Assembly: GCA_944322965.1 (NCBI GenBank) | Contig: CALUQR010000006.1 | Location: 38,456-102,455, forward strand | Source of the DNA: Vulcanimicrobiota bacterium | Lineage (GTDB): Bacteria > Vulcanimicrobiota > Xenobia > Xenobiales > Xenobiaceae | Length of the DNA stretch: 64,000 nucleotides | Direction: 5' to 3' | Part shown: one piece after another, positions 5,008 through 52,450 of the stretch | Layout of the letters: each line of letters opens with the position of its first letter | Position numbering within the stretch: the first letter of the stretch is position 1 | Notes under the pieces: generated by a model | Database searches by the model: none | What the model saw: the letters and a program-made list of their open reading frames with translations, nothing else | Told to the model about the DNA's origin: nothing | Translations under genes and position numbers: made by a program

Positions 5008-5017
5008 GAGTCTCATC

Positions 5018-11000: not shown

Positions 11001-12436
11001 GCGACGCCCACGAGCGCTTTGGTCCCATCGTAGGCCTCATTCACGGGGCGGGCGTCTTAGCCGACCGCTTAGTTGTAGATAAGACGGACGAACAGTTCGA
11101 CCGCGTCTTCGATACTAAGGTCACCGGCCTCTACAACTTCTACCAGGCCTTACAGGATGAACCCCTGCAGTTCGTCTACTCCTTCTCTTCCGTCTCCGCC
11201 CGCTTCGGTCGTCCGGGCCAGTGCGATTATGCCATGGCCAACGAGGTGATGAATAAGTTTACCTACCTGGCCTCCCACTTCCGCCCCGAGGTGCGCTTTG
11301 GCGCTTTAGGGTGGGGTCCTTGGGACGGCGGGATGGTCGACCGCAACTTGCGCCAGCAGTTCGATAAGTTGGGAATCGAGCTCATCGACTACCGGCGCGG
11401 CGCCCAGAGTTTAGTCGCCGAGATCTTGGCCGGTCCCCAAAATGAGCATGAACTCATCTTTGGCAAAGGCTTTGACGCGCCCCAAGAGAGTTATCCCTCC
11501 CCGGAGGAGACCCCCGGCGCCGAGACCGCTCCCCCAACTAGCGCCCCAACGGAGCCCGAGTTAGACGTCCACACCCCTTACCAGACGCCCCTCACCTTAA
11601 AGGAGTACCCCCTCTTAGAAGATCACGTCTTTAATGGCAACTCCGTAGTGCCCTTGGCCCTTATGGTAGAGATCGTAGCTCAGGCCTGCCAGCGTTACTT
11701 CCCCCACTACCATTTCCGGGGCTGCGACAACTTGCGCATCTTAAAGCCCGTCACCCTCCCCCACGGCGAGACCCCCCAAGAGTTATTGGCCGATAGCTCT
11801 CTGAGCGTCAATATCGTAGACATTAAGGAGCAGTCGGGCCTCTTGCAGGTCAACTTCTACTTAGATCACCACCTGCCCGGCGAGAAGACGGAGCGCTGCG
11901 CCGCGGGTACGGCCCTTTTGAGCGCCGAGGTGCGCCATCAGCCCGCCGACTCTAGCCGCCTGCCCCACATCCAGGAGCGGGATTATCCCCTCTCCACCCA
12001 GGAGGCCTACCAGCGTTACCTCTTCCACGGCCCCAGCTTGCAAGCCATCCGCAAGGTCAAATCTTGCAGCGACCAGGGCTTATTGGCCAAGGTAGCGGCC
12101 CCCAAGGGCGAGCGCGCCCCCTTAGCCTGCGGTAAACAGACGATTACCCATCCCCTCTTCTTAGACGGAGCCTTGCAGAGTGGACTCTTCTGGACTGGCG
12201 CTCAGCGCCACATGTGCTCCCTGCCCATGTTCGGCGGCCGCTACCGCCAGTACGTGCGCGAGTTCCCGGAGGAGGCTAAGATCTTGCTCTATCCCAAGGA
12301 GATCTCCAAAAACCAGATGTGCGGAGACATCTTCTTAGTCGATAAGCGCGGTATCCTGGCCGAGTGGCGCGACGTGCGCTGGATTATGACCCCCGAGTTA
12401 GCTCAGTCCTTCCGCCACAATAAGTTGGGCCAATAG
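5018..12436 (+). CDS. pfaA: PfaA-like multidomain PKS subunit: KS (Cys codon 5654-5656), malonyl-CoA:ACP transacylase (GQGSQ ~6740, GHSYGE 7009-7026), Pro/Ala-rich linker, four tandem ACPs (LGIDSIKRVEIL x4), KR (TGGARGV ~10660), PKS-type DH (HxxxGxxxxP ~11620)
   Basis: Domain motifs read directly from the translation. The architecture matches PfaA/Pfa2 of PUFA synthases. Confidence 0.9.
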   Translation: MSSKSHSPHNTPIAIIGLGCLFPKGGSKQGFWRVLRTGANCIEPVPETHWSVNDLYDGDHASPDRCYAKVGGFLEPYPFDPTEFNIPPNVLEATDTSQLLGLVGAKAALEDAGYGPQGKELPKDRTGVILGVTGALEMVVPLGARLGHPRWRKALAEAGIDRQTCEKIVAQISDSYVSWQENSFPGLLGNVVAGRIANRLDLHGTNCTVDAACASSLAAVHLAINELQAGQADMVLTGGVDTFNDIFMFTCFSKTPALSDSGRIAPFSADADGTLLGEGVGIFVLKRLADAERDQDKIYAVIRGMGSSSDGNSGSIYAPSAPGQAIALRRAYEAAHIDPQTVDMVEAHGTGTKVGDIVEFNSLREVFKERQPSDSCALGTVKSQIGHTKAAAGAASLAKTALALFYKVLPPTLNISAPHPKLNLRETPFYLNIDTRPWLSSQHPRRAGVSSFGFGGSNFHIVLEEYSPKRTQPAWDGSCQIWAFSAPSRPELAAAVRQASQVPPYESAYWAQESRRSFQASAPFRATLVCGPNDSQEKLAELAQALEEESTLPANAFYGEGEIERGQIAFLFPGQGSQYVGMGRDLFSIFPEAFASLEKAHQLLDPSQDPAAFIFPISHFDPQEATSWNQALTATQVAQPSLGTIESSMARVLESFGLKPQALAGHSYGELVALERAGVYSQSELFRLSALRGSLMAAGDGGRGAMSALSAPLAKIEALVAEVGGELVLANRNHPTQGVISGPKEAIDQAEALCKERKITAHRLQVSAAFHSSLMASARQPFGEALAALELKAPQVPVYANISAQPYPQSPEEIANTLGDQLVSSVRFIEIIENMYQAGFRTFIEVGPKTVLTGLVKKILGQRPHYLISTDGRKGGAELQGIALTLAQLSALGAPLKLSAWEAPVSKPRAKRMVIPISGANYRTPNKKAPAPYCDPKEPVEGYQPLHFVSDNPPVLPAPAPQPLEEVTLETAAANEPLPPLPKVAPPAIPVPPAPAPGPQEGPIPERIPAPAAPAAAPKLPAQLQVPAPVSSHAAPIMAQALQTIQQGLAALQALQAQTAAAHLQFLQSQAQIQSSLQAIIAAQQNLAGAQLGQAPLSRPLTVSAPPLAQAAFPSVAPTPWPQAPAFPSPSLPVGAPLPTQAPAPELTSTPLPPEPVAPSAPKAAPTPAPAPQAVPSPAVATGAALSPAEIQQKILATVAQMTGYPLEMLNLDMSLEGDLGIDSIKRVEILSALHKELPQVSEIAPEEIGSLQTLRQVAQRLQSKIGTLSAPAQTAPTAEAPALSAAAPSEAAPVDAAQRLLEVVSQATGYPQETLNLDMDLESDLGIDSIKRVEILAAMQKVFPQAQELAPEELNSLRTLRQIVEKLAPAQKATASAAPAATTAPSETVASAAPPAAHLDPAEAVLEVVAQTTGYPLETLNLDMDLESDLGIDSIKRVEILATLQKLLPGSAAHLDSESLSNLHTLRDIAQALQASAPSAPVAAPAQAASPSDALALVLEVIAQATGYPLETLSPEMDLESDLGIDSIKRVEILATLQKVLPKAGEIAPEELNSLRTIGDIVRALSGEDGPQPPQPGPAPQGPRSDSTSDSDSTSQAAPQAEEAPVPSPAPAENAAPAESAAPAETAAPTDAVAPVAETDALPFEVEELGGAPADRLLRRVLSYELAPNPLRGRQLDKRGLYLLLDDGFIAPALAPVLTRQGLQVELVDLAQASDPQYLAALPAVSALFLTLPSQAPQREEEIFFQRSAAAENLKERFRLARSLAQTWALQRRQPSLIVTITRLDGQFGTSGQPCDPLAAGLHGLTRVLAQEYPHTVCRSFDLHPQLTATEAAGQLVRELQSEGSNEVGLSPQGRRIPVLREEPLDFTNLHLLPPHSTILVTGGARGVTAQCVKLLAKLCRPNFVLVGRSAVPTPESSLTTGATNARDLKSLIFKQAKEGGRSLSPQQLEKECQRILANREITKTIAEVRSYGSRVNYVSMDVRDDELAQMIVRDAHERFGPIVGLIHGAGVLADRLVVDKTDEQFDRVFDTKVTGLYNFYQALQDEPLQFVYSFSSVSARFGRPGQCDYAMANEVMNKFTYLASHFRPEVRFGALGWGPWDGGMVDRNLRQQFDKLGIELIDYRRGAQSLVAEILAGPQNEHELIFGKGFDAPQESYPSPEETPGAETAPPTSAPTEPELDVHTPYQTPLTLKEYPLLEDHVFNGNSVVPLALMVEIVAQACQRYFPHYHFRGCDNLRILKPVTLPHGETPQELLADSSLSVNIVDIKEQSGLLQVNFYLDHHLPGEKTERCAAGTALLSAEVRHQPADSSRLPHIQERDYPLSTQEAYQRYLFHGPSLQAIRKVKSCSDQGLLAKVAAPKGERAPLACGKQTITHPLFLDGALQSGLFWTGAQRHMCSLPMFGGRYRQYVREFPEEAKILLYPKEISKNQMCGDIFLVDKRGILAEWRDVRWIMTPELAQSFRHNKLGQ
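8570..9720 (+). repeat. Four tandem ~300-bp coding repeats (the ACP domains) inside pfaA, with near-identical cores (gacttagggatcgactctattaagagggtggagatc).
   Basis: The repeated GIDSIKRVEIL blocks are visible at the nucleotide level at about 8671, 8990, 9303 and 9581. Confidence 0.85.
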
Positions 12437-12457
12437 TGAGCGCTCTAGTTAGCGCAG

Positions 12458-12508
12458 TGGCTGCCCCTCTAGGAGCTCGCTCCTAGAGGGGCAGCCATAC
12501 CCTTTTTT
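12458..12508 (+). terminator. Strong GC hairpin (tggctgcccctctagga / tcctagaggggcagcca) followed by a T-tract, between pfaA and the next PKS gene. It could be an intrinsic terminator or attenuator.
   Basis: A perfect 17-bp inverted repeat followed by cccttttttaa. Confidence 0.55.
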
Positions 12509-12541
12509 AAGACCCCAGACATTTTTTAGGGTGAAAACGAA

Positions 12542-15500
12542 ATGAGAGAGTATCAAGATAGAGCGGCCATCGCCATCGTAGGTTTAGGTCTCCACTTCCC
12601 CGGAGCCCACAATGTAGAGGAGTACTGGCAGCGCCTGCTGGAAGGGCGCGATCTATCCCAAGACTCTCCGCCCGGCCGCTGGCCCGAGTATATCCACCAG
12701 CGCCTGAGCTCTACCTTCCAGCCCGATACTTTGCGCAATAAGCGGGGCTACTACCTCGATACTATCCCGACTCCGGCCTCCTTGGGCTTGCCTGAGGGGA
12801 TAGACCCTCTCTTCTGCCTGGCCTTAGCTACCGCCCGCCAGACTATTATTTCTCAGACCGCCCTCCCCTTAGAGGAGACGGGGCTCATTATGGCCTCCAT
12901 CGCCCTCCCCACCGACACCACCTCCAACTTAAGTTGGGAAGTCTTAGGGGGCGACTTCTTAAAGAGGCTGCGCACCCTCTGGCCCCAGGATAGGCCCTGC
13001 CCGCTCCCCGCAGCTAATCCCCAACTCCCTCCCGCCGCTCCCTACAACGTGGCGGCCGTAGGTCTCCCCGCCCAGCTGGTAGCCGCTCAACTCCATTTAG
13101 GTCTGGGGGGCTACACCTTAGACGCGGCCTGCGCCTCCTCGCTGGTAGCTATCGAATTGGCCTGTCGAGAGCTCTTAGCCGGTCGGGCCCAAGCTATGTT
13201 GGCGGGCGGACTCTCTCGCCCCGATTCCCTCTACACCCAGATGGGCTTCTCCGCCCTGCGAGCCCTTTCGCCCAGCGGTCTGTGCGCCCCCTTCGATAAG
13301 CGGGCCGACGGTTTGATGGTGGGCGAAGGCTGCGGTTTAGTCTTACTCAAGACCTTAGAGCGCGCCCAAGCCGATGGAGACCATATCTACGCTATTATTC
13401 GCGGGGCGGGGATCTCCAATGACCTCCAGGGCAACTTATTGGCCCCCTCCAGCGAGGGCCAACTGCGCTGCCTGCGCCAAGCCTACCAGAGCTGCCATTT
13501 AGAGCCTTGGCAGGTGGAACTGATCGAGTGTCACGGCACGGGCACTCCAGTAGGCGATAAGGTGGAATTAGAGAGCTTGCGCCAACTGTGGGAGGGGGCT
13601 CCGGCCCAGAAGTTGTGCCAGTTGCGCTCCGTCAAGGCCATGGTAGGCCACCTCTTGACGGCCGCCGGGGCCGCCGGCCTCATTCGCACCGTCCTCAACT
13701 TAGAGAAAGGACAGATTACCCCCCAAGTCAATTTCCAAGAGTCGGCCTGGGATTTAGAGTCTACCCCCTTCCGCATTTCTAGCCAGCTCCAAGAGTGGCC
13801 CCAGGTAGGCCCAGAGCCCCGGCGAGCGGCGGTCAGCGGCTTTGGCTTTGGCGGTATCAACGCCCACCTCATCTTAGAGGAGTACCGCTCCCCCGCCGCA
13901 GAGCTTACCCCCCTCCCGACGATCGCCGCGAACGCCGCCCCCTCCCCCGCCGCAGATGAAGAAGAGCCGGTAGCTATCGTCGGCTTGGCCTGCCATTTAG
14001 GGCCTTTAGAGAATTTAGACTCCTTCCAACGGGCCCTCTTCCAGGGCTTAGAGCTGAGCGAGCCCCTTCCCCCCCAGCGTTGGCAGGGGATAGAGGGTCC
14101 CAGCGCGGGCGGCAATTATATCGACAAATTCTCCTTCCCGTTGGGTCGCTTCCGCATTCCGCCCGCCGACTTAGATTCCATCCTGCCCCAACAGTCGGCC
14201 CTCTTGACCTGCGCCGCCCAGGCCCTCTTAGATGCGGGCGAGCCTCTGCGCCAGGTACGCCAGCGGGCGGGGGCCTTTATCGGTATCGCCCTCGATCCCA
14301 ATACGACCAACTTTAATTTGCGCTGGAACCTGCCCCCCTTAGTAGCCCAGTGGGCTAAGGAGCTGGGTTTAAGCCCCGCCGAAGAGGAAGAGTGGTTAGA
14401 TAAGCTCCAAGAGGATATCTCCGCCCCCTTAGACGCTACTAGGACTTTAGGGGCCTTGGGGAGTATCGCCGCTAGCCGCGTAGCCCGCGAGTTCCAATTT
14501 GGCGGTTCCTCCTTTAGCCTCTCCGCCCAGGAGCTCTCCGGTCTGGAGGCCTTAAAGTTGGGCTTAGACTCCCTGCGCGCCGGCCATTTAGACCTGGTCT
14601 TAGTGGGGGCTATCGACCTCCAGGGCGATATTCGCCAGGCCTTAACCCACCTCAGCCCTCAAGAGCAGGGCTTAGATAGCGAGGAGCCCTTATACTCTGA
14701 GGGGGTCTGCACCTTAGTCTTAAAGCGCCTCAGCGAAGCCCAAGCGGCAGGGGACCGCATCTACGCCGTCTTGCGCGGGGTAGGTCTAAGCCAAGGGGAA
14801 CTCTCCAAAGCCTGCGCCCAGAGTTGGTCTAAGCCCCAGAATTTGAGCTACTTAGAGTTAGCTAACTCCCTGTGGCTGGAAGAGTCCTCCACCTTAGCCC
14901 CCCAGCTTTTGAACTTATTTAAGGAGGGCCAGCGCCCCTTAGCCGTGGGCAGTTTAGAGCGCTTAATCGGGCAGACGGGTTGTGTCAGCGCCTTAGCCTC
15001 CGTCTTAAAGAGCGCCCTCTGCCTCTACCGCCACGCCCTACCCGCTACTCCCAACTTTACCCGCCCGTTGGCCGAGCCCCAATTGTGGCAGGATAGTCGC
15101 CTCTTTGCGCCCCGCCAGAGCGCTTACTGGTACCGCAATAGAGCCCAAGGGAAGCGCCAAGCGGGCGTCTTAGCTAGAGCCTATCCCGACCATTATGGCG
15201 CCGCCCTCTTAGAGGAGGTGGAAGAGTCCCCCGCGGAGGCTAAAGCCCTCTCCTCGCTCCTCCCTCCCAGCGCCTTAGTAGTCGTAGCGGCCGGCCCCGA
15301 GCCCGCAGCCATCACCCAGCGGCTGAGCGCCCTCTTGGCGGAATTAGAGAACCTCCCGGCCTCGGAGCTCACCCCCGCCCAGCAGCGCCAGACTTTGGCG
15401 GCCCTCAGCCTGCAGTGGTATCGAGAGAGCGATCTCCAAGCCCCCTTGGCGGCGGCTATCGTCCTCAATTTAGAAGTCGAGAATCCCCTCCAAGACCTCA

Positions 15501-18500
15501 AGCGCGACTTAGAGTTGGCCTTACAACATGTGAGCGAGCGCCCTCAGGAGAGTTTAGAGCGGGGCAATATCTACTATCACCCCCAGCCTCTGGCCGCCCA
15601 AGGGAAAGTGGCCTTCGTCTATCCCGGCTCCGGAGCTAACTTCTTAGGTTTGGGCAGAGAGTTGGCCCTGCGCTTCCCGGCCCAGATGGAGGCCTTAGAT
15701 AGTCGCCAAAAGTACTTGGCCGACGAGTTTATGGCGCGCTGGAATCAGCCGTACGCCCTAGATTGGAGCGAGGGTTGGCAACATCGCGCTTGGGAGCGTC
15801 TGAGCGCCGATACCCACCAGATGATGTTCTCCCAGGTCAGTTTCGCCATGCTCTCTACGGCCGTCGTACGCCACTTGGGGATCGAGCCCCAAGCGGCCAT
15901 CGGCTACAGCTTAGGGGAGTCGGCGGCCCTCTTCTCTTTAGGCGCCTGGCCCGATCCCGATCTGATGTACGAGCGCATGCAAAGTTCCGAGCTCTTTAGG
16001 AAGGATCTCTCCGGTCCCTGCCGCTCCGCCCGCCAGGCCTGGCAGATCCCAGCTGAGGAGCCCTTCACCTGGGTAGTGGGCCTCTTGCGCCTGCCCGCCC
16101 CCCAAGTTAGCGCCGCTATGGAGGGGATCGAGCGTATCCGCCTCTTAATCGTCAATACCGATACAGAATGCGTAGTGGGCGGCGTCCCCCAGGCCTTAGA
16201 GGAGCTCTGTCGCCGCTTGCATACCCAAGCTATTACCGTGAGCGGAGTCGATACCGTCCATTGCGACTGCTTAGCCCCCGTAGCCCGCCAGTATTGGGAG
16301 ATGCACCATCTGCCTTGTACCCCTCCGCCCGGTATCGATTTCTATAGCGCCTACTTCCAAAAGGCCTACCCCCTCACCTCGGAGGCCATAGCCGACTCTA
16401 TCGCCGGCCACGGCCAGCACGGCTTCAACTATCCCGCCACTATCCGCCAAGCCTGGGCGGACGGGGTGCGCCTCTTCTTAGAGATGGGTCCGGGCGCCTC
16501 TTGTACGCGCATGATCCGCAGTATCTTGAGAGACGAGCCCCACGCGGCCTACAGCTTGAGCGTCCGCAACCAGAATGAGGCCCTCTCCTTGGCCCACTTC
16601 CTGGCCGCCGTCTTGAGTCAGGGCCTGCGCCCCAACTTAGTAGAACTCTGGGGCCAGCTGGAGAGCGCTCCAGCCGCTACCCCCAGTAAGGACCTGCGCT
16701 TAGGGAGAGCCCCTTACGCCCCCGCCTTACCTAAGTTCCCGACGCTAACCCAGAGCGCTCCCGCCCTGTCCGAGGAGCTTACTCCCGCCCCCGAGGCTGC
16801 GCCCCCCGCCGCGCCCAATTTCCCGGCCCAACCTATAGCCCCGGCGCCCGCTCTCTCTACCCCCGCCCCGGCCCCTCAGTCGGCCCCGACGCCCCAATTG
16901 GCCGCAGTTCCCACCTCTACTTTCAACCCCCATCCTTGGGTCCAGCTCTTACAGGAGGGCGGCCAATGGGAGGAGAGTTTGCACCGCCAGTGGTTGGCCT
17001 TTACCCAGCAATCGGCCCAAGGGTGGGCGGAGATCGTCAACCGGCAGAGCCAGTTAGTGGCCGCCCTCCAGGGTCAAGGTTACGCCCTCGCCGCGCCCCT
17101 CCCCTTGGAGTCCCTTCCCTTAGAACCTCAGGCCCAAGTTCAGATCCAACCTCAGCCCCAGGCCCAAGTTCAGGTCCAAGTTCAAAGCCCGACTCAGGGT
17201 CAGGAGTTCCCGCCCTTAGAGTCGCGTTCCGCTTATCTGCCCATGTTGGCCGGGCGCCAGATCCTCCATCCGGGCGCTTACGCCTACGGTCCTAAGCCCA
17301 GTCTGGCTCCGCCCTCCTTGTCCCTCTTCCTCGATCGCGACCAGTGTTTAGAGTTTGCGGTGGGGAAGATCGGTCAGGTCTTAGGGCCTAAATTCGCCCC
17401 CATCGACTCCTACTCTACTCGCGTGCGCCTGCCAGCTGAGCCGCTCATGTTGGTGGATCGCATCTTAGAGGTGGAGGGGGAGCCTCTCTCCTTAGGCTCG
17501 GGCCGGGTGGTCACTGAGCACGACGTCTTAGAGGGGATCTGGTACTTAGACGGGGGCCGGGCTCCGGTCTTTATCTCCGTCGAGGCCGGTCAGGCCGATC
17601 TCTTCCTCTGCAGTTGGTTAGGTATCGACTTTAAGGCTCAGGGGCAGCGCGTCTACCGGCTCTTAGACGCCCAAGTGACCTTCCATCGCGGCTTGCCCCA
17701 GCCCGGGGAGACGATCCGCTACGATATTCGCATCCGCCATTTCCTCAACCAAGGCGCGACTTGGCTCTTCTTCTTTGAGTACGATAGTTATATAGGCGAC
17801 CAGCCCTTCTCTACCATGCGCAATGGCTGCGCCGGGTTCTTTACCTACGCCGAGATCGAGAATAATGGCGGGCTCATCTTGAGCGCCGACCGCGATCGCC
17901 CCGCCCCCGGGAAGTGCGATCCTAACTACCGGCCCTTACTCCCGCTGCAGGCTGAGAGCTATGGAGAAGAGGTAGTAGAGGCCTTGCGCCAGGGCCGCTT
18001 AGAGGCCTTAGGGGCGCCCTTTGCCAATTTGGCCTTAAAGGATCCGGTGCGCTTGCCCGACGGGCTCTTGGCCCTCATCCATCGGATCCCCGAGTGCGAT
18101 CCCCAAGGCGGCCGTTGGGGCTTAGGACGCGTCGTCGGCGAGGCCGACGTCCATCCTCAGGATTGGTACTTAGTCTGCCATTTCTGCGACGATATGGTTA
18201 TGCCCGGGACCTTGATGTACGACTGCTGCTCCCAGGCCCTGCGCTTCCTCTTGACCCGCTTAGGGTGGGTGGGCGAGCGCCAAAAGGTGGCTTACGAGCC
18301 GGTACCCGGTTGTAAGGTGACCCTCAAGTGTCGCGGTCCGGTCTTAGCGACCACTAAGACGGTGCGCTACCAGATCGAGATCAAAGAGCTGGGCTACAAT
18401 CCCACCCCTTACGTCATTGCCGAAGCGGTGATGTACGCCGACGGGAAGCCTATCGTAGGCTTTGAGGATATGTCCCTCCAGCTGAGCGGCTTAGATCGAG

Positions 18501-19690
18501 AGTACTTAGAGGGGCTCTGGCAAGTGGCTGAGCACTCGCTCCACCGGGGCGATCCCCCTAAAAAGGCCGTCTTTACCGAAGAGCAGCTCCTCGAATTGGC
18601 GACGGGGTTACCCTCTAAGGCCTTAGGTCCGGAATTTGCTCCCTTCGATGGGCGCTTCTTAGCGCGCTTACCCGGCCCGCCCTACCAGTTCTTGAGTCGC
18701 ATTACCCAGGTCGACCAGCCCTACTTAGACCCCACGCCCGGAGGCTGGGTAGAGGCTCAATATGATATTCCCCCGCAGGCCTGGTACTTTGCGGCCAATC
18801 GCACTGGGAATATGCCCTACTGCGTCTTAAATGAGATCGCCCTCCAGGCTTGCGGCTGGGTCTCGTCCTACGTAGGCGGCTCGCGCTATACCCAAGAGCC
18901 GCTCTATTATCGCAATCTGGGCGGTCAGGCTACCCTCTATCGGGAGATTACCCCCCAGATGGGTACGCTCACTATCCGGGTTCGACTCACTAAGTCGGCT
19001 CAGGCGGGCGGGCTCATTATCCACGACTTCCAAATGTGGATGGGCCAGCTGGGTGAGACTATCTACGAAGGGACGACCCACTTTGGCTTCTTTACCGCCT
19101 CCGCTCTGGCCAACCAAGTGGGAGTGCGCGGCGGCCGGCAGAAGATCTGGCAGCCCGACCAGCCCCTACCCTTCCGACCCTTAGAGCGCACCGCGCCCTT
19201 AGACCCCGCCGACAGCCACTCCTCACCCCACGCCCCCCTCTCCCTGCCCAGTCGGGCCCTCCTGATGTTAGACGAGTGGGCTTGGTACCCCCAAGGCGGC
19301 TGGAAAGGACTGGGGGCGGTCGTAGCTCGCAAGCAGGTCGATCCTAGCGACTGGTTCTTTAAGGCCCATTTCTATCAAGATCCGGTCATACCCGGCTCTT
19401 TAGGCTTGGAGTCCTGCCTAGAAGCCCTCAAAGCGGCGGCCCTAGAGATCTGGCCCCAGTATCGGGAGAGCCACACCTTCTCGGCTATCCTTCTGGAGAG
19501 ACCGCACCGCTGGCTCTACCGCGGCCAAATTATCCCCCGCAACTGCGAGACGACCGTCCACCTCTCCCTAACCGAACGCGGCTCAGACGAACGCCCCTAC
19601 CTCAAAGGCGACTGCCTCGTCTGCGCCGACGGCACACCCATATACGAACTCCAAGACTTCGGGGTTTCTTTAGATGTCGTACTTACATAA
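12542..19690 (+). CDS. pfaC: PfaC-like subunit with embedded acyltransferase: KS (Cys codon 13130-13132), chain-length-factor KS-like domain (Cys replaced, ~13965-15100), AT (GYSLGES, Ser codon 15908-15910), Gln/Pro-rich linker, and two FabA-like dehydratase/isomerase double-hotdog modules (His codons 18179-18181 and 19367-19369)
   Basis: Motifs DAACASS, then GGSSFSLSAQE (no Cys), GxSxG, then HFCDDMVMPG and HFYQDPVIPG. There is no C-terminal acyltransferase (AGPAT) domain. Confidence 0.88.
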   Translation: MREYQDRAAIAIVGLGLHFPGAHNVEEYWQRLLEGRDLSQDSPPGRWPEYIHQRLSSTFQPDTLRNKRGYYLDTIPTPASLGLPEGIDPLFCLALATARQTIISQTALPLEETGLIMASIALPTDTTSNLSWEVLGGDFLKRLRTLWPQDRPCPLPAANPQLPPAAPYNVAAVGLPAQLVAAQLHLGLGGYTLDAACASSLVAIELACRELLAGRAQAMLAGGLSRPDSLYTQMGFSALRALSPSGLCAPFDKRADGLMVGEGCGLVLLKTLERAQADGDHIYAIIRGAGISNDLQGNLLAPSSEGQLRCLRQAYQSCHLEPWQVELIECHGTGTPVGDKVELESLRQLWEGAPAQKLCQLRSVKAMVGHLLTAAGAAGLIRTVLNLEKGQITPQVNFQESAWDLESTPFRISSQLQEWPQVGPEPRRAAVSGFGFGGINAHLILEEYRSPAAELTPLPTIAANAAPSPAADEEEPVAIVGLACHLGPLENLDSFQRALFQGLELSEPLPPQRWQGIEGPSAGGNYIDKFSFPLGRFRIPPADLDSILPQQSALLTCAAQALLDAGEPLRQVRQRAGAFIGIALDPNTTNFNLRWNLPPLVAQWAKELGLSPAEEEEWLDKLQEDISAPLDATRTLGALGSIAASRVAREFQFGGSSFSLSAQELSGLEALKLGLDSLRAGHLDLVLVGAIDLQGDIRQALTHLSPQEQGLDSEEPLYSEGVCTLVLKRLSEAQAAGDRIYAVLRGVGLSQGELSKACAQSWSKPQNLSYLELANSLWLEESSTLAPQLLNLFKEGQRPLAVGSLERLIGQTGCVSALASVLKSALCLYRHALPATPNFTRPLAEPQLWQDSRLFAPRQSAYWYRNRAQGKRQAGVLARAYPDHYGAALLEEVEESPAEAKALSSLLPPSALVVVAAGPEPAAITQRLSALLAELENLPASELTPAQQRQTLAALSLQWYRESDLQAPLAAAIVLNLEVENPLQDLKRDLELALQHVSERPQESLERGNIYYHPQPLAAQGKVAFVYPGSGANFLGLGRELALRFPAQMEALDSRQKYLADEFMARWNQPYALDWSEGWQHRAWERLSADTHQMMFSQVSFAMLSTAVVRHLGIEPQAAIGYSLGESAALFSLGAWPDPDLMYERMQSSELFRKDLSGPCRSARQAWQIPAEEPFTWVVGLLRLPAPQVSAAMEGIERIRLLIVNTDTECVVGGVPQALEELCRRLHTQAITVSGVDTVHCDCLAPVARQYWEMHHLPCTPPPGIDFYSAYFQKAYPLTSEAIADSIAGHGQHGFNYPATIRQAWADGVRLFLEMGPGASCTRMIRSILRDEPHAAYSLSVRNQNEALSLAHFLAAVLSQGLRPNLVELWGQLESAPAATPSKDLRLGRAPYAPALPKFPTLTQSAPALSEELTPAPEAAPPAAPNFPAQPIAPAPALSTPAPAPQSAPTPQLAAVPTSTFNPHPWVQLLQEGGQWEESLHRQWLAFTQQSAQGWAEIVNRQSQLVAALQGQGYALAAPLPLESLPLEPQAQVQIQPQPQAQVQVQVQSPTQGQEFPPLESRSAYLPMLAGRQILHPGAYAYGPKPSLAPPSLSLFLDRDQCLEFAVGKIGQVLGPKFAPIDSYSTRVRLPAEPLMLVDRILEVEGEPLSLGSGRVVTEHDVLEGIWYLDGGRAPVFISVEAGQADLFLCSWLGIDFKAQGQRVYRLLDAQVTFHRGLPQPGETIRYDIRIRHFLNQGATWLFFFEYDSYIGDQPFSTMRNGCAGFFTYAEIENNGGLILSADRDRPAPGKCDPNYRPLLPLQAESYGEEVVEALRQGRLEALGAPFANLALKDPVRLPDGLLALIHRIPECDPQGGRWGLGRVVGEADVHPQDWYLVCHFCDDMVMPGTLMYDCCSQALRFLLTRLGWVGERQKVAYEPVPGCKVTLKCRGPVLATTKTVRYQIEIKELGYNPTPYVIAEAVMYADGKPIVGFEDMSLQLSGLDREYLEGLWQVAEHSLHRGDPPKKAVFTEEQLLELATGLPSKALGPEFAPFDGRFLARLPGPPYQFLSRITQVDQPYLDPTPGGWVEAQYDIPPQAWYFAANRTGNMPYCVLNEIALQACGWVSSYVGGSRYTQEPLYYRNLGGQATLYREITPQMGTLTIRVRLTKSAQAGGLIIHDFQMWMGQLGETIYEGTTHFGFFTASALANQVGVRGGRQKIWQPDQPLPFRPLERTAPLDPADSHSSPHAPLSLPSRALLMLDEWAWYPQGGWKGLGAVVARKQVDPSDWFFKAHFYQDPVIPGSLGLESCLEALKAAALEIWPQYRESHTFSAILLERPHRWLYRGQIIPRNCETTVHLSLTERGSDERPYLKGDCLVCADGTPIYELQDFGVSLDVVLT

Positions 19691-19735
19691 TGGCTGGGAC
19701 TTAACGCTCGGCCGTAAGTTAAGTTACCGCAGGAT

Positions 19736-19757
19736 TTAAGCTAATTCGGAATTAGGC
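19736..19757. repeat. Solo copy of the TAAGCTAATTCGGAATTAGG motif shared with the terminal repeats of the MITE-like element. It overlaps the stop codon of the cysteine desulfurase gene.
   Basis: taagctaattcggaat is identical at 19736 and 36830. Confidence 0.5.
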
Positions 19758-20863
19758 TAAAACGCAATACGCACGGCGCCCAACGCGTACTCCCTCTGCA
19801 GTTTCAAGGCTTTAATTACATGAGAGATCTGGAAATCGTGGGAGTCGCAGGCGGAGCCGGTGGCTACGGCTATCCCTTGGAGGTTGAGTCGCTGTTGGAT
19901 AGTCTCCCCTTCGCAGTTGGGGAAAGAAAGATTGAGCACCCCGGGCAGTTTGGGGGGGTGGCTATTGAGCTTAAAGGGCACCCCCTTCTCGCGCAGGAGT
20001 CGGAGTAGTTCGTCTTCCAAACGTTGCAGATGCAAGTTTCTTTGCTGCAGATGGCGCAAACTCTCTTCTAGGGCTCGGGCCATGCCTACGATGGCGGCTA
20101 CGTTCTCTGTACCGGCGCGCAGGTTCCGTTCTTGGGCTCCGCCGTGGAGGAGGGGCTCGATCTCAATCCCTTGGCGCAGGTAGAGGAATCCTATCCCTTT
20201 GGGCCCTTGGAACTTATGGGCGGAGGCGGAGAGGAGGTCTACTCCCAGTTGGGGGATCTGCAAGTCGAGATGCCCTACCGCTTGGACGGCGTCGGTATGG
20301 AAATAGGCGCCCGCCTGGTGGGCGCGTTGGGCCAGCTGGGGGATAGGTTGCAAACAGCCTAGCTCATTATTGGCGGTCATAATAGAGACTAAGGTGGCGT
20401 TGGGACCCAATTCCGCTTGCAGGGTCTCCGGCTGGACCCGCCCTTCCCGGTCTACGGGCAAGTAGCTGACAGGCAAGTTAAAGAAGCGCTCTAGGTACTG
20501 GGCGCAGCGCAGGACGGCGTGATGTTCTATCTGGGAGGTTAGGAGCACAGCTCCCCCCTGGGGCGCCCAGAAGTTAGGACCCCGCTCTAAGATGGTACGC
20601 TCAATAATCCCGCGCAAGGCCCAGTTATCGGCCTCCGTACCTCCGGAGGTAAAGTAGATCTCCTGGGGCAAGACCCCTAGGGCGCGGGCGATAGTGGCTC
20701 GGGCCTCTTCGATAGCCTTCTTAGCTTGACGTCCCAGGCGGTAGAGCGAGGAGGGGTTCCCGAAGCGCTCTTGGAGGTAGGGGCGCATCACTTCTAGAGC
20801 TGCGGGACTTAAGGGGGTGGTGGCGGCGTTATCTAGATAGAGTGGGGGCTCAAACTTAGCCAA
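19757..20863 (-). CDS. Class V aminotransferase / cysteine desulfurase (NifS/IscS/DndA-like). It is the last gene of the BREX-containing co-directional block.
   Basis: The PLP-lysine region SAHKFQGPKGIGFLY and the N-terminal YLDNAATTP motif. It overlaps the upstream zinc-ribbon gene by 8 bp. Confidence 0.8.
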   Translation of the reverse strand: MAKFEPPLYLDNAATTPLSPAALEVMRPYLQERFGNPSSLYRLGRQAKKAIEEARATIARALGVLPQEIYFTSGGTEADNWALRGIIERTILERGPNFWAPQGGAVLLTSQIEHHAVLRCAQYLERFFNLPVSYLPVDREGRVQPETLQAELGPNATLVSIMTANNELGCLQPIPQLAQRAHQAGAYFHTDAVQAVGHLDLQIPQLGVDLLSASAHKFQGPKGIGFLYLRQGIEIEPLLHGGAQERNLRAGTENVAAIVGMARALEESLRHLQQRNLHLQRLEDELLRLLREKGVPFKLNSHPPKLPGVLNLSFPNCEGETIQQRLNLQGIAVATGSACDSHDFQISHVIKALKLQREYALGAVRIAF

Positions 20864-21059
20864 AGAGGGTACAGCCCTCCTCTTTAAAGAATTCGATCTG
20901 CTCTAAGAGATCTTCGGGGGTGGCGCCCAGCTCTTCGGCCAGACACTGCAGGCAGTAGAACTCGCGCACGTTGCGGCCGCGCAGTTTGCGATTTAAGCCC
21001 ACCTCGTTGCGGGTCAAAGGTTCGTGCCCGCAGGCGATACAGCGATACTTTTTAGCCAT
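20856..21059 (-). CDS. Small CxxC...CxxC zinc-ribbon protein (67 aa), possibly DUF2197/YlaI-like
   Basis: The sequence CIACGHEP...YCLQC. It begins 15 bp downstream of brxL and overlaps the desulfurase start. Confidence 0.45.
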   Translation of the reverse strand: MAKKYRCIACGHEPLTRNEVGLNRKLRGRNVREFYCLQCLAEELGATPEDLLEQIEFFKEEGCTLFG

Positions 21060-24956: not shown

Positions 24957-27900
24957 TTAAAAGGGTTTATCGATTAGGGCGATCCCCAATTCCACATCGT
25001 CTTTAATGACATCCAGTAAGAGCGTTTTGAGCACCTCCGGGGGCAGCTCGTCTAAGCGGCGGCTGAGGCGGGGCAGCCCCGTCTCCTTATATTCCGCTTC
25101 GGCCAGCTCCTTAATGGCGGGCAACATCTGGGGTTCGGTCCAGTCGTAGACCGGCGCCTTCATCTTCTTAGCTAAGCTCTCGCAGAAGCTATGGGAGGAG
25201 GGCACGAAACTATGGTAATGGCCCGCCACCCGCTGCCGGAACTGGAGTTTAGCCCGGGGCAGGTCGTTCATTAAGCCAAAGAGCGAGCTCTTCTCCAGCC
25301 ACTCCAAGATGCGCTTGGCCTCCTCTTCCCCTAAGGAGGATTGGGAGTCGTTTAAAACTCGGAAGGCGGATTCCGAGATCTCGCGCTCCTCTTGGGGCAC
25401 TAAGTAGCGGATGGGGATGAGGTTTTTTTGCGACCATTCCCGAGGATTAGGGGAGCCGCTCTTCTCTTGCCACAGGCGTTGGATGCGCCCTTGCAAGCTC
25501 TTGCGCCGCTGGGAGGCGGCCAATTTTAAAACCTGCTTTTGGGCGGAATCGAGGGAGCCGCTCGAGATATTGAGGTGGCTAGCCCGCAACTGGGCGAAGA
25601 CCTCGCCCACCGAGTCGTCGTCTAAGCCCTGGAGCTGGGTCTTATAGAGGCTCTTAAAGGAGTCTAACTCGTTGCCAAAGAGCTCCCCTAACTTCTGACC
25701 CTCCTCCTGCAAAGCGCCCAGCCACTGCTTGCGCACTAGGTCGGAGTTATAATCCCGGTAACCCTTACATAAGCGGTCTAAGCGATCGACTAAGCCCGGG
25801 CTGAGGGCCCCGCTCTCTAAGCTCGTTAAGGTGGAGAAGGGCAAGCTGAGCTCGGAGAGGCGCTTACTGAGCTCGTTCATAGCCTCCTGGAGCCCACCCT
25901 TGGGACCTTGCCCTAAGAGATTCGTCAGACGCCAGAGGAGCTCTAACTCATCCCCTACCCCGGAGATCGTATCTTGGCCTATCTCCTTAGTCCAGGAGTA
26001 GGCCATGTCCGTCGAGAAGGCCGATTGCAGGCGCTCCTGGAGCTTTTTAGGCTCCCAACCCAATTGGGCCGTCAGCTTATTTAAGCGCCCCTCCTGGAAT
26101 TTATCTAAGAAGTCGCGCAAAGCTTGCAGGGCCTTATCCTTACCCACCGCCTCCCGCAGACGGCTAGCCCACTCCTGGCCCCGCTCTTGGTAGAGCCGGC
26201 CCAACTCTTGGGCTTTGGGGCGGGCGGAGGCCGGGCCCTCCTTAGAGATCTCCCAGAAGAGTTGCAAACCTTGGACCACCTGGGGATCGTCTAAGCGCTC
26301 CCAGACCATCCATAAGGGCCAGACCCGCTCCTTTAAGGCCGCCCCTAAACGCTTCTGCCAGCTGGAGAAGTCGGACTCGTTGAGCTTAAAACTCCACACA
26401 TAAGAGGCCAACTTCTTAAAGCTGACCATCTCCGGCGACTCTCGCACCAGGGTGACCTTATTCTTATCGTTCCCGCGCACGAGGTTATTGAGCTGGTCCT
26501 GGAGCTTCCCGATATCCATAACGCCCCCGGCCCCCGCCCGATCGGCGTAACTATATTTCGGGTCCTGGTACTCCTTTAAGAGGAAGCCTAAAAGGAAGCC
26601 GTAGAGGTTATTGGGCCTAAAGCAGGCCTCCTTAACTAGATAATTCCAGACCTCTTGCCAGCCGATGTGGCCGTTAGAGCCTAGATTTTTCTCCATCAGC
26701 TCTTCTAAATGGGCCTTCAATTGGGAGATGGGCAGAACCTTAAGTTGGGGGACCTGCCAATAATTGGGGACGCTCCACACCTCCCCTAAGCCCAGGCGCT
26801 TTTCGATCTCCGCCATCTCTCCCTTAGGCTGGGCGGGGGCCTCTAAGCCGGCCCGAATGAAGCGGGAGGGGCTCAAGTTGAGCCAGCTATCTTTGAGCCG
26901 CTCATTTAAATCGAATAAGGGGTAAGAGGATGAGGCGCTCAAGAGGCGCTTTAGCTCTTCGCAGAGGGTATTTAAGGTAGGATACTTCTGCCCCGGTTTC
27001 TTTAACTTAGAGCCATAGAGGCGGAAGGGCCCCTCCGCCAATTTGGAGAGCCAAACCTGCTCGAGGAGACTCTCCGCCTTCTTGCGACTCTCCTCCGCCT
27101 GGCTGCGGTCCTTGCTACTATAGAGCGAGGCGTAGGCCATGCCCTCAATATAGTCGCCAAAATTCTTGGGCGAGAGCAAGGTGGAGGTGAGATCTACTAA
27201 GACGGTCTGGCCCCCGCCCTCCTGTTCCCAGTCGACCTTATCCAAAAGATCCTCCAATTGGCGGCTCTCCCCTTCGTCTTTAGCTACTACTAACCCCCAC
27301 TTGAGCGGACTCTTGCGCTCTAAGAGGCGCTTCAACTGGCGACCAAAGTCGGAGACGGTCAAGAGTTCAGGAGTATCTAAACGCTGGGCCAGGGCCTTCC
27401 CTAAAGCCTCGCCGCTCATCTCTAAGAGGTGGTGCTCTTTAAGATACTTACTGGCTAAGTTGGAGGTAGTAATACTCTTAGCCAGGCGCTCTTTGATCTT
27501 CTCTAACTCGATCTCGTCGCCCACCCCTAAGGCCACCACGTAGCAGTAATCGTTACTAGAGATAGACCGATCCTTAGCGATAACGTGTTTCTCGCGCAGC
27601 TCCTCTAAGCTCTTAGCTACGCAATCGTTGGCTAGACCCTCCCCCACGAAGGCCCACTCTAAGTGTTCCTGGGTGGTCTCTAAGAGCTTCACTTGGTTAT
27701 TGCAGGCCCTATTGACGGCCAACATAATTAAGAGAGCTTGCAAGACCCGCCCCGCCTCCGGACTCAGGTGGCGAGCGTAGCGCTTATAAGTACCCAAGAT
27801 GCGGTTGGCGTCTGAGGTCAGGTCCTCTTTTTTATATTCGGTAAAGTACTGCCAAAGCAGGTCCACGGTCAGTAAGGGGCGGTCCCCGTAGGGGCCGTAG

Positions 27901-29162: not shown

Positions 29163-31592
29163 CTATACCTCCTGGATGAGCTCTAGGACCTGAGCCGAGG
29201 ACTGGGGTCCCAAATTGATAGAGTCGAGGTCATGTGTGAAGCTGACCTGAATATATTCGGGGTAACGGGCGTTTAATCCCAGTAAGGGGGCTTTAAGTTG
29301 AGCGGGAGTCGCCCCCCACAAGCGCAAGGGACTGACCGCCTGGCGCTCGGCGGTAGGATCGGCCAACTGCCCCAAATTGAAGGCCCGATACTCGCCCCCC
29401 ATAGCCTCCGCAAATTTAAATAGGCTGTAGAGTAAGACTAAAGGCGACCCCCACTTAGGAGCGGTGCGCACCAAATACTCCTCTTTGCCCTTCTTCTCTA
29501 CCCTGCCCCAATTGAGAACCGTCCCTAAGGGGGTGGCAGCTAGGCGTTTGAAAGCCTTAACGATAGAGGCCGCATCCTTATCGCTAATCCCCAGCTCTTT
29601 TAGAGCCCCCACCAACTCTTCCCGCGCATAACGGTGTTTCAGATCCATAAAGTTGGTGTACCAGGCCATTTGGGGGTTAGTGTAGACTAAATTAGTCAAA
29701 ATCAACCCCAAAGCGTTCTCTGAATCCCAGCCCAAACGAGAGATAAATTCCGCAAATTCAGTGAAGGTGTTGCGACCATTTAATCCAGCATCTCTCAAAA
29801 AACGCCGGAAGAAATCAAACATATTGGAACCTAGGCTATGTTCCGTATAGAACCTTTGCTTAAGTGCAAAGAATGAGCGCAACCATTCCGTCTTTGGTGC
29901 ATGGTCAGCAAAAGTGTTGAGGCTGCTTTTTACCATTTTATGAGCTCCTGTTCCAGGTGGGAAATGCAAGGATTTATAGGCCAGACAATTGCCTGGAATA
30001 TCATAACAATCATGACATTGACGACAGTTCTCTATACGAACTTCGCCCTCATGAAAACTTATGGCCCCATAAGGGCAAGTAATTTCACAAGTTTGACATG
30101 CAATACAATGAGCCGTTTTGCGTAAAACAGCCCGTAAGGAAGTAATAAATTTAGGAGATGATTTGACAGTGTGCGGGTCAACCGTAATTTTAAAACCCAA
30201 TGCAGTCTTCTCAAATTGTACTTCAAACGTCTCTTTGGGAGTCATCAGTGTCAGCGAATTGCCAAGTAAAAAGACGTCTCCAATAGTCTTAAACCATTGT
30301 CGCCAGTCGGATAGTGGCTTAACTAACTCAAAGACTAGAGTTCCATTTCGCTCACATTCTATGATGTGTGACTTGTTTTTGGCTAGTGATCGCCCATTAC
30401 GACGCAATTGCCAGCCACCGCCAACCAAATAGCTTAGTTTTAGCTTCTTTTGTTCTTCAACCGTAGTATCTGCATCTTTTTCGGGGACATCATAGCTATT
30501 ACGCACTATCTTGGCGAAACGTTCGACCTTATCAGTATAGTTAGCCCAACGGAAATAATTCGCCAGGTTACCTGTCATGGGGCACAATAAACACCCAGCT
30601 CTAGAGTTACCCTTCTTATAGCCAGCATTAATCGTTAAGTTTCTAGAGAATATGTAAAGCCAAATTTCGGCTGAATTCCATTCTAAGAGAGGATTGAAGC
30701 TGTATTGCCCCTTTTGTTTTTTGCTGTAATTGTCGTAAGTGTATTCTGAGCGGCTTAGGCTTTCTGCACGTCGTACGCCCACAAAGTCCAATCCCTTATA
30801 GTTGGGCTTACCGCTCAAACGGCGAAGAGTAAGTGTCTGCGGCGTACTCTTATGCACGCAACAACACCAGCGCGCCACCTTGGCAGGAGGAGCGAACTTA
30901 CGCCAAGATGCTTCAGGAGTACATTGGGCTTTTGTTCGTTCAAAAGATATGCCCTCATTACGACATTTACGCTCATCTTGACGAACAGCCGCCAAGGTGT
31001 CAGGAAATTCCATTCCTGTATCGGCGAAGAGAACAACAAAACTATTGGCAGGTAACGCTGATTTTACAAGGTCTAACAGGACGATACTGTCCTTGCCTCC
31101 CGAATAAGCCACATGGAATATATCGACTATTGATTGGTATCTTTCATACGCATCCAATATTTTTTGAATCGTATCCGCAACTAAGACTTCTAAAAGTTGA
31201 GAGTTAGCAGCGAGCATTGCCCCCATATCAATAGGTTTTAGAATTTGTTCCTTAAATACGCAGGAACTCATTTCAGCGTCAGAGAACAAGACGCCCTGCC
31301 CAGAGCTCGTTTCCCTACTTTCATCCCAATTGACATCAAAGAAAGTCACCGTTGGTTTTTCGTAAAGATTACCCCCACGCAGCTGAGCAATCAGTTGCCC
31401 CCGATAGTAATACTTGCTCCCTTCTGCCCACATATAAGGAACTGATTCATTAGAATCATATTTCCAACGAGAATTAAAACCCAAGAGATCCATTTCTTGG
31501 GCCCATACTGGTCTAGGCTCCTTAGAGAAGGCTAACGGCAAATCACGCAAGATGATTCCGCCGGTAGCGGGATCGTAGGCATAAGAATACAT
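29163..31592 (-). CDS. brxP: BrxP-like protein: a PAPS-reductase/PP-loop domain (SGGKDS) plus a 4Fe-4S ferredoxin-type motif (CIACQTCEITCP) and a C-terminal extension
   Basis: The PP-loop HVAYSGGKDSIVLLDLV and the CxxCxxCxxxCP cluster motif. DndC-like chemistry, in the type 4 BREX gene order brxP-brxC-pglZ-brxL. Confidence 0.65.
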   Translation of the reverse strand: MYSYAYDPATGGIILRDLPLAFSKEPRPVWAQEMDLLGFNSRWKYDSNESVPYMWAEGSKYYYRGQLIAQLRGGNLYEKPTVTFFDVNWDESRETSSGQGVLFSDAEMSSCVFKEQILKPIDMGAMLAANSQLLEVLVADTIQKILDAYERYQSIVDIFHVAYSGGKDSIVLLDLVKSALPANSFVVLFADTGMEFPDTLAAVRQDERKCRNEGISFERTKAQCTPEASWRKFAPPAKVARWCCCVHKSTPQTLTLRRLSGKPNYKGLDFVGVRRAESLSRSEYTYDNYSKKQKGQYSFNPLLEWNSAEIWLYIFSRNLTINAGYKKGNSRAGCLLCPMTGNLANYFRWANYTDKVERFAKIVRNSYDVPEKDADTTVEEQKKLKLSYLVGGGWQLRRNGRSLAKNKSHIIECERNGTLVFELVKPLSDWRQWFKTIGDVFLLGNSLTLMTPKETFEVQFEKTALGFKITVDPHTVKSSPKFITSLRAVLRKTAHCIACQTCEITCPYGAISFHEGEVRIENCRQCHDCYDIPGNCLAYKSLHFPPGTGAHKMVKSSLNTFADHAPKTEWLRSFFALKQRFYTEHSLGSNMFDFFRRFLRDAGLNGRNTFTEFAEFISRLGWDSENALGLILTNLVYTNPQMAWYTNFMDLKHRYAREELVGALKELGISDKDAASIVKAFKRLAATPLGTVLNWGRVEKKGKEEYLVRTAPKWGSPLVLLYSLFKFAEAMGGEYRAFNLGQLADPTAERQAVSPLRLWGATPAQLKAPLLGLNARYPEYIQVSFTHDLDSINLGPQSSAQVLELIQEV

Positions 31593-31638
31593 GGGACCTG
31601 GTACACATGACGAGGCATGCTTAATATATCATCAAGTT

Positions 31639-52048: not shown

Positions 52049-52124
52049 TGGAGCGGAAGAAGAGATTCGAACTCTCGACCCTTGCCTTGGCAAGGCAATG
52101 CTCTACCGCTGAGCTACTTCCGCA
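52049..52124 (-). tRNA. tRNA-Gly(GCC), copy 1
   Basis: The reverse complement GCGGAAGTAGCTCAGCGGTAGAGCA TTGCC-TTGCCAA-GGCAA ...TTCGAATC...CTCCA forms a cloverleaf with anticodon GCC. Confidence 0.9.
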
Positions 52125-52180
52125 TCTACTATTTACTTATCCCCCCAGACGCCAAACCCAGACCCGCAAAAAGAAAAAGT

Positions 52181-52256
52181 TGGAGCGGAAGAAGAGATTC
52201 GAACTCTCGACCCTTGCCTTGGCAAGGCAATGCTCTACCGCTGAGCTACTTCCGCA
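52181..52256 (-). tRNA. tRNA-Gly(GCC), copy 2 (identical tandem duplicate)
   Basis: The sequence is identical to copy 1. A 56-nt spacer separates them. Confidence 0.9.
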
Positions 52257-52284
52257 TCTCCAACCATTCTGTCCCTCGTCTGGG

Positions 52285-52367
52285 TGGTGGGCAGGAAGGG
52301 ACTCGAACCCTTACGATTGCTCACTGGCTCCTAAGACCAGCGCGTCTACCATTCCGCCACCTGCCCC
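52285..52367 (-). tRNA. tRNA-Leu(TAG) with a long variable arm
   Basis: The reverse complement GGGGCAGGTGGCGGAATGGTAGACGC CTGGT-CTTAGGA-GCCAG ... CCCACCA. Confidence 0.85.
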
Positions 52368-52374
52368 GAAGGGG

Positions 52375-52450
<76 letters not shown>

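Follow-up and report, generated by a model that had tools for sequence, protein, structure and literature searches.

The operon and its genes

In the current study, we analyzed a 64,000-nucleotide (nt) stretch of the Vulcanimicrobiota contig CALUQR010000006.1 (hereafter, the window), in which a cysteine desulfurase gene and a small gene with CxxC motifs had been predicted to stand at the end of a bacteriophage exclusion (BREX) operon. On the minus strand, from 36753 down to 19757, lie seven co-directional open reading frames (ORFs) with short intergenic gaps (Table 1). Four of these, brxP, brxC/pglY, pglZ and brxL, are contiguous on the one strand, with 6 to 21 nt between them, and identify the locus as type 4 BREX. 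Beyond the matches listed in Table 1, BrxL matched its own PADLOC model at 5e-217, and BrxC also matched several SspC models in that collection, down to 1.6e-20. None of the seven operon proteins matched a methyltransferase (PglX-type) family in Pfam, NCBIfam or PADLOC.

The two terminal genes were found at the coordinates that the original prediction had given them: the 67-amino-acid (aa) ORF starts 15 nt past the brxL stop (21075), and the TTG start of the desulfurase gene overlaps the last 8 nt of that ORF (TTGGCTAA). Translational coupling of the pair also had been proposed; the overlap is present here but is particular to this locus, since its relatives usually have a gap of ca. 5 to 30 nt. 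Similarly, the six co-directional genes that had been foreseen do share one strand and short gaps, but the operon has a seventh member, the 1704-aa ORF upstream of brxP. No terminator-like site was seen on the minus strand between brxL and the two end genes. This is a weak test, the scan for promoters and terminators having given only background signal. In one strain variant (L004), an internal deletion of ca. 1.2 kb (window positions 25108-26350 are missing) leaves a brxC gene that is called as 949 aa, which suggests that the system is inactive in part of the population.

Table 1. Features of the type 4 BREX locus, with positions in the window
Feature	Position	Strand	Remarks
1704-aa ORF	31639-36753	-	46 nt upstream of brxP
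brxP, 809 aa	29163-31592	-	PF01507 (PAPS_reduct) 1.4e-27; PADLOC BrxP 3e-215
brxC/pglY ATPase, SspC homologue, 1399 aa	24957-29156	-	PADLOC BrxC 1.5e-167
pglZ, type 4, 791 aa	22560-24935	-	NF033445 BREX_PglZ_4, 318 bits (cut-off, 140)
brxL, short Lon-like ATPase of the type 4 kind, 490 aa	21075-22547	-	TIGR02688, 412 bits (cut-off, 329)
Zinc-finger protein (CxxC...CxxC), 67 aa	20856-21059	-	C7-x2-C10 ... C36-x2-C39
Cysteine desulfurase, 368 aa, TTG start	19757-20863	-	Class-V, NifS/IscS-type; probable DndA/SspA-equivalent of the operon
Codon of predicted pyridoxal 5'-phosphate (PLP)-binding lysine K217, motif S-A-H-K	20213..20215	-	Identical in 51/51 aligned sequences
Codon of predicted persulfide-forming cysteine C339, motif G-S-A-C	19847..19849	-	Present; the 51-sequence identity count refers to K217
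Low-GC cassette, 2.9 kb	29556-32429		BrxP residues 1-679 and upstream protein residues ~1442-1704 (last ~260)

The cysteine desulfurase and its linkage to BREX

The product of the last gene matches PF00266 (Aminotran_5) across residues 9 to 367 (6e-73) and carries the PLP lysine and active-site cysteine loop of a fold-type I, group I (NifS/IscS-type) desulfurase. Its PADLOC matches to SspA (1.5e-119) and DndA (6e-119) are about equally good, the SspA model being one that has no curated cut-off. Among curated families the best match is NifS (TIGR03402; 398.7 bits against a cut-off of 530.75), and the scores against DndA (TIGR03235; 334.2 against 480) and IscS (TIGR02006; 271.8 against 643.2) also fall below the NCBIfam cut-offs, as does that against the curated SufS model. 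By these thresholds, the enzyme lies outside the DndA, NifS and IscS equivalogs. The nearest solved structures are of the NifS/IscS type (286 bits), with DndA (3vax) and SspA (6m4j) at 180 and 185 bits, respectively. The protein appears to work like DndA and SspA without being their orthologue. No gene for an IscU, NifU or SufE partner adjoins it, and no dnd genes were found in the window, so the desulfurase is without linkage to dndBCDE. TTG is its sole plausible start codon: it is preceded by GAGGAGG at a distance of ca. 14 nt, alignments to the family models begin at residue 8 or 9, and the first ATG or GTG occurs only at residue 24.

A comparison with other type 4 loci, which had been suggested alongside the original prediction, bears out the linkage of both end genes to BREX. 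Starting from an alignment of 20 BrxL homologues, we fetched 80 loci with 10-kb flanks, one per species-level genome, from Bacillota, Chloroflexota, Spirochaetota, Planctomycetota, Verrucomicrobiota, Bacteroidota, Desulfobacterota, Synergistota, Cloacimonadota, Hydrogenedentota and methanogenic archaea, and searched them by tblastn with the window proteins. The order upstream gene-brxP-brxC-pglZ-brxL-zinc protein-desulfurase recurs nearly everywhere. Counting only loci with sufficient downstream sequence (79 for the zinc protein and 71 for the desulfurase), brxL has the zinc protein after it in 74 of 79 (94%), and in 50 of 71 (70%) the next gene after that is a full-length desulfurase. Adjacency in 50 of 71 genomes from many phyla, each with one to a few NifS-like genes among thousands, is far beyond chance. 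In addition, the desulfurase is correlated in its pairwise identities with each of BrxL, PglZ, BrxP and BrxC (r = 0.53 to 0.63; Mantel p = 0.001), with a contribution from host relatedness. The best matches in a collection of 5.8 billion proteins reach 53% identity, and the three closest of these relatives all sit in BrxP-BrxC-PglZ-BrxL-(66-69 aa)-desulfurase operons. Nothing above 54% identity was found outside the gene's own population, which is unlike what a vertically inherited housekeeping gene would give. Taken as a whole, the comparison points to a BREX type 4-associated desulfurase lineage that travels with the system, as opposed to a housekeeping gene that is adjacent by chance.

Three further loci contain remnants, as 34- to 44-aa fragments (L025 and L043) or a 5'-truncated copy (L032), and these apparently are decay intermediates on the way to desulfurase-less operons; all three lie 3' of the zinc-finger gene (at 11716-11847, 11734-11835 and 11965-12756 of their respective loci). 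In 18 of the 71 loci the desulfurase is absent within 10 kb, and 15 of those 18 retain the zinc protein. In such loci the operon just stops, and the genes that come next are mutually unrelated (an AbiEii-type ATPase, a transposase, a sigma-54 activator, a sulfatase and a Schlafen-like protein), and this lack of a conserved replacement fits substitution by a housekeeping enzyme. In one relative (L088), the zinc-finger gene lies between pglZ and brxL (8312-8512), and the desulfurase still follows brxL. A fecal virome entry labeled "UNVERIFIED: Bacteriophage sp." (MT835511.1; L095) holds the entire seven-gene type 4 BREX operon, desulfurase included, and represents either bacterial DNA in the virome or carriage of the operon on a mobile element.

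The desulfurase of the window ends unusually early. Its sequence stops at ...GAVRIAF and lacks the 22 to 29 C-terminal residues, corresponding to the final helix of the small domain, that are kept in all 50 BREX-linked relatives. At this end of the gene (window positions 19757-19762) and in the 66-nt spacer beyond it (19691-19756), only about six in-frame remnant codons can be made out past the stop. A frameshift was considered as the cause and rejected: the missing tail is not encoded in any other downstream frame, so the tail has been deleted and not shifted out of frame. Nevertheless, the 368-codon frame is intact with all of its catalytic residues, and the same length is found in nearly all of 18 protein variants on well over 100 contigs. 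The curated DndA model is covered at positions 1 to 352 of 353, and the solved SspA chain is comparably short (348 residues). Because the frame is intact, its length is kept in the population and the DndA model is covered from end to end, the enzyme is probably functional despite the missing tail.

The zinc-finger protein, BrxP and the exchanged cassette

The 67-aa protein has two CxxC pairs throughout its family, as predicted for a C4 zinc ribbon or zinc finger; conservation of C7, C10, C36 and C39 is 90% or more both in 75 locus copies and in 60 cluster representatives. A fifth cysteine, C63, falls in a C-terminal F-K-E-E-G-C-x-L-F motif that is conserved in the 75 copies, and it is invariant in the 60 cluster representatives. 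A word-indexed homologue search with this short protein recovered the query alone, whereas an exhaustive HMMER search gave a family of 426 clusters at 50% identity. The AlphaFold model (predicted local distance difference test [pLDDT] score of 90.8) has helices at residues 17-27, 37-44 and 48-61, and the body of the protein is predicted to be a three-helix bundle resembling a helix-turn-helix (HTH) domain; fold and profile matches, to HTH regulators and to a NirDL-like HTH profile, are weak. Of the two end genes, that of the zinc protein is the more constant, and its presence is independent of the desulfurase, which is a modest addition to published work.

The same zinc domain occurs at the C terminus of 3'-phosphoadenosine 5'-phosphosulfate (PAPS) reductase proteins in 3 of the best 150 clusters (P0274, P0362 and P0349). 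In P0274 and P0362, it stands where BrxP has its DNA-binding end. P0349 comes from a phage-like contig (L092), where a second PAPS-reductase gene also carries the zinc domain. These fusions point to a partnership of the zinc protein with BrxP. For four of the proteins with zinc-domain fusions (P0356, P0384, P0362 and P0274), the contigs are too short to give a gene context. On the phage-like contig, the two fusion genes are at 7759-9021 and 10001-11245, and genes for a DNA ligase, Mom and a holin also are present.

BrxP itself has the properties that had been ascribed to it, namely, a likeness to DndC with a PP-loop and an iron-sulfur (Fe-S) motif. The PP-loop motif SGGKDS is at residues 164-169, a ferredoxin-type cysteine cluster (CxxCxxCxxxC) lies within C496-C536, and the C-terminal region is of the DNA-binding kind; weak PADLOC matches to SspD (5e-7) and DndC (4e-5) were found. 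Upstream, the 1704-aa protein gave no match in Pfam, PADLOC, NCBIfam or the sequences of the PDB, domain profile searches of Pfam and the PDB included. It consists in part of proline/alanine-rich and glutamate-rich linkers and repeated modules. Its C-terminal ca. 430 aa contain the motif W-N-L-F-L-L-E-S-Y-C-R-R-F-S, and about 60 of the 80 loci have this part conserved immediately 5' of brxP; the gene is apparently unnamed in the two published studies of type 4 BREX discussed below (PMC12914056 and PMC12839542).

The low-GC cassette that spans the junction of these two genes exists as two very divergent alleles with sharp breakpoints, as seen when the window is compared with L001 (1-2992) and L004 (1303-4247). 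Outside the cassette, from the desulfurase through the last 130 brxP codons, the strain variants are 99.8 to 100% identical. Within it, identity of BrxP between alleles is only 24 to 68% per 50-residue block, returning to 100% past about residue 690. The GC content of the cassette is 0.435 in the window and 0.41 to 0.44 across both alleles, compared with 0.55 to 0.57 in the flanks. The 2.9-kb swap looks like the exchange of a specificity cassette, in which case the target would be chosen by BrxP and the upstream protein as opposed to BrxC.

The chromosomal edge of the island is marked by a polyunsaturated fatty acid (PUFA) cluster on the plus strand (3382-19690). This cluster, made up of a PfaD-family enoyl reductase gene and two giant polyketide/PUFA-synthase genes (2472 and 2382 aa), ends 66 nt from the desulfurase gene, with which its last gene is convergent. 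Service of the desulfurase to this polyketide synthase neighbor was considered and rejected, as the neighbor is absent from all 80 related loci and the BREX linkage is conserved. Divergent from the operon, on the plus strand, are two tandem paralogues of 587 and 573 aa (37257-39020 and 39208-40929). They carry RTX-like repeats rich in glycine and aspartate, and their C-terminal part has an H-E-x-x-H motif (MLHELCHAYN). Farther on, the minus strand carries thiI (tRNA 4-thiouridine sulfurtransferase; 43919-45172), which implies a housekeeping desulfurase elsewhere in the genome, and four clustered tRNA genes (52052-52450).

A proposed sulfur route for self-marking and its relation to known systems

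Much of the framework for interpreting this locus has appeared recently. Yuan et al. (Nat Commun 2026, PMC12914056; bioRxiv 2024.06.03.597175) reported that type 4 BREX makes phosphorothioate DNA in Bacteroides: deletion of brxC abolishes phosphorothioate dinucleotides, and in a Bacteroides host, which provides SufS, brxP and brxC are enough to make them. In the description of these workers, BrxP is a fusion of SspD with SspB, and BrxC is homologous to SspC. Phosphorothioate marks and phage protection by type 4 systems are known only from Bacteroides and other gut isolates (PMC12914056). A comparative survey (NAR 2026, gkag035, PMC12839542) found that 255 of 457 type 4 taxa (56%) have a desulfurase "not previously associated with BREX", put this enzyme forward as the sixth core component, accompanied by a zinc-finger protein, and ascribed its patchy presence to substitution by IscS, NifS or SufS. 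The survey also recorded the Fe-S-type cysteine region of BrxP and described the zinc protein as HTH-like (PMC12839542). Because the chemistry is reported in the one paper (PMC12914056) and the linkage in the other (PMC12839542), both were already published in 2024-2026, and our locus is a further example; the statement in the original prediction that this link had not been demonstrated is outdated. What that prediction joined together, namely, co-transcription, a dedicated desulfurase and a sulfur-based mark, is now supported jointly, the linkage by our comparison and the chemistry by the Bacteroides work (PMC12914056).

With the gene identities, catalytic residues, conserved linkage and co-inheritance described above, we consider it likely that the window holds a complete type 4 BREX antiphage operon that marks self DNA by phosphorothioate and that the 368-aa enzyme is its own DndA/SspA-equivalent. 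In this scheme, the desulfurase, with PLP on K217, would draw on free cysteine for sulfur, hold this as a persulfide on C339 and pass it to BrxP, whose Fe-S cluster(s) it probably would build as well, in the manner reported for DndA with DndC. BrxP, a putative PP-loop/PAPS-reductase sulfurtransferase of the SspD/DndC kind fused to a DNA-binding region, would act with the BrxC ATPase to adenylate and thiolate the DNA backbone at specific sites. Phosphorothioate synthesis by brxP and brxC is taken here, by analogy, from the literature. The mark presumably is a sulfur that replaces a nonbridging oxygen (phosphorothioate), in place of methylation, and PglZ and BrxL would provide the exclusion function against unmarked phage DNA. 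The zinc protein would be a near-universal small subunit, most likely a DNA-binding or docking adaptor that works with BrxP and possibly a regulator.

Several observations weigh against this interpretation. In sequence, the desulfurase is nearer to NifS/IscS-type enzymes than to characterized DndA or SspA, and it fails the curated DndA, NifS and IscS cut-offs. Its last helix is missing, so the enzyme could be impaired. The two desulfurase polymorphisms among six strain copies are both nonsynonymous, although with only one or two variable sites per gene in these copies the numbers are far too small for a synonymous/nonsynonymous count. Given that 30% of type 4 loci are without a linked desulfurase and that the published reconstitution used host SufS, the desulfurase is dispensable in principle. 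Finally, at least one homologue of the zinc protein (L096) lies in an unrelated bacterial neighborhood, and the family therefore is not exclusive to type 4 BREX.

How far do these points favor other readings? The affinity of the enzyme to NifS, the best curated match, and to solved structures of the NifS/IscS type would suit an ordinary housekeeping desulfurase, engaged in Fe-S cluster assembly or tRNA thiolation, that came to lie beside BREX by accident, and thiI, the product of which needs such an enzyme, is in the window. However, the adjacency is repeated in 50 of 71 unrelated genomes, the three nearest relatives are all BREX linked, and no orthologue above 54% identity exists in the large protein collection apart from the gene's own population; the scores below the NifS, IscS and SufS cut-offs and the lack of an adjacent IscU, NifU or SufE gene point the same way, making an accidental neighbor extremely improbable. 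Decay is harder to dismiss, but we still think it quite unlikely that this copy is a remnant, inactivated by the loss of ca. 25 C-terminal residues, with a housekeeping enzyme supplying the sulfur. The tail is present in 50 of 50 BREX-linked relatives and is reduced here to a few in-frame codons past the stop, decay has been seen in three other loci, and 18 of 71 have no linked desulfurase; against this stand the intact frame, the kept catalytic residues, the constancy of length in nearly all 18 variants, the almost complete coverage of the DndA model, and an SspA of similar shortness. Fe-S loading of BrxP was offered as an alternative in the original prediction, and it also could be that the desulfurase has no role other than this, the DNA sulfur coming from another donor. 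The ferredoxin-type cysteine region of BrxP is in keeping with this, as is the report that DndA assembles the DndC Fe-S cluster (You et al. 2007, as cited in PMC12914056 and PMC12839542). Yet DndA is reported there to perform both tasks for DndC, and the literature cited by the same two papers takes the same desulfurase to be the source of the sulfur in the DNA mark of Dnd and Ssp. The two roles are compatible, and sequence does not separate them; we hold an exclusive Fe-S role to be highly doubtful and favor a desulfurase that provides the sulfur of the mark.

The zinc protein presents a more evenly balanced case. It may be a mere transcriptional regulator of the operon and no partner of BrxP or the desulfurase, a possibility that we take seriously while leaning against it. 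The predicted three-helix HTH-like bundle, its weak matches to HTH regulators and the NirDL-like HTH profile, the similar description in PMC12839542, and the one homologue in an unrelated neighborhood would all agree with a regulator. On the other hand, the gene is found at the 3' rather than the leading end of the operon, PAPS-reductase enzymes of at least three protein clusters have the domain attached at their C terminus (two genes on a single phage-like contig among them), and there is an invariant or almost invariant fifth cysteine that is not part of the zinc site. These features argue for an adaptor that works with BrxP. One speculative, and in our estimation rather doubtful, extension is that the zinc protein is an obligate BrxP subunit, for DNA docking or for a persulfide relay through C63, and that at the same time the swapped cassette sets the target sequence of phosphorothioation. 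If this were true, populations would change their self-mark through cassette exchange. The strain-level swap offers a natural experiment on the sequence specificity of the mark.

The locus provides an independent, nongut example of type 4 BREX carrying its own sulfur-mobilizing enzyme, in a chromosomal island beside a PUFA-synthase cluster that is found in environmental metagenome assemblies. It supports the published view that type 4 BREX is a phosphorothioate-based system similar to restriction-modification. Like the genetically validated brxPCZL operon of Bacteroides salyersiae, it has the four core genes in the same order and no PglX methyltransferase, with a BrxP composed of a PAPS-reductase part and a DNA-binding region and an SspC-like BrxC. 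However, the Bacteroides operon relies on host SufS (a dedicated desulfurase is not discussed there) and includes mcrA and an unknown gene, while the present one has its own desulfurase, the zinc protein and the large upstream gene. Protein identities between the present operon and its relatives are only 27 to 65%. The type 4 systems of the NAR survey have exactly the architecture seen here, and our counts of 70% and 94% reproduce the picture given by the survey independently: the desulfurase is present in 56% of its 457 taxa and in 70% of our 71 loci. The differences are that the zinc protein is commoner than the desulfurase in our set (94%), being kept in 15 of 18 desulfurase-less loci, and that the present desulfurase copy is C-terminally shortened.

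Among systems that modify DNA with sulfur, the closest mechanistic parallel is the single-strand phosphorothioation system SspABCD of Vibrio cyclitrophicus, where SspA would be the counterpart of the desulfurase, SspD together with SspB that of BrxP, and SspC that of BrxC; unlike that system, the present locus has PglZ and BrxL in place of SspE or SspFGH, and its neighbors are not ssp genes proper. Dnd of Streptomyces lividans likewise combines a NifS-like desulfurase with a PP-loop/PAPS-reductase Fe-S protein, and the chemistry is presumed to be the same. However, the desulfurases are not orthologous, dndB, dndD and dndE have no counterpart here, and the match of BrxP to DndC is weak (4e-5). 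With housekeeping NifS/IscS enzymes, such as those of Thermotoga maritima (1ecx) and Escherichia coli (IscS, 1p3w), the desulfurase shares its fold, the PLP lysine, the cysteine loop and ca. 40 to 45% similarity. In contrast to these, it has no IscU/NifU neighbor, it lacks the C-terminal partner-binding tail, and it is inherited with a mobile defense operon.

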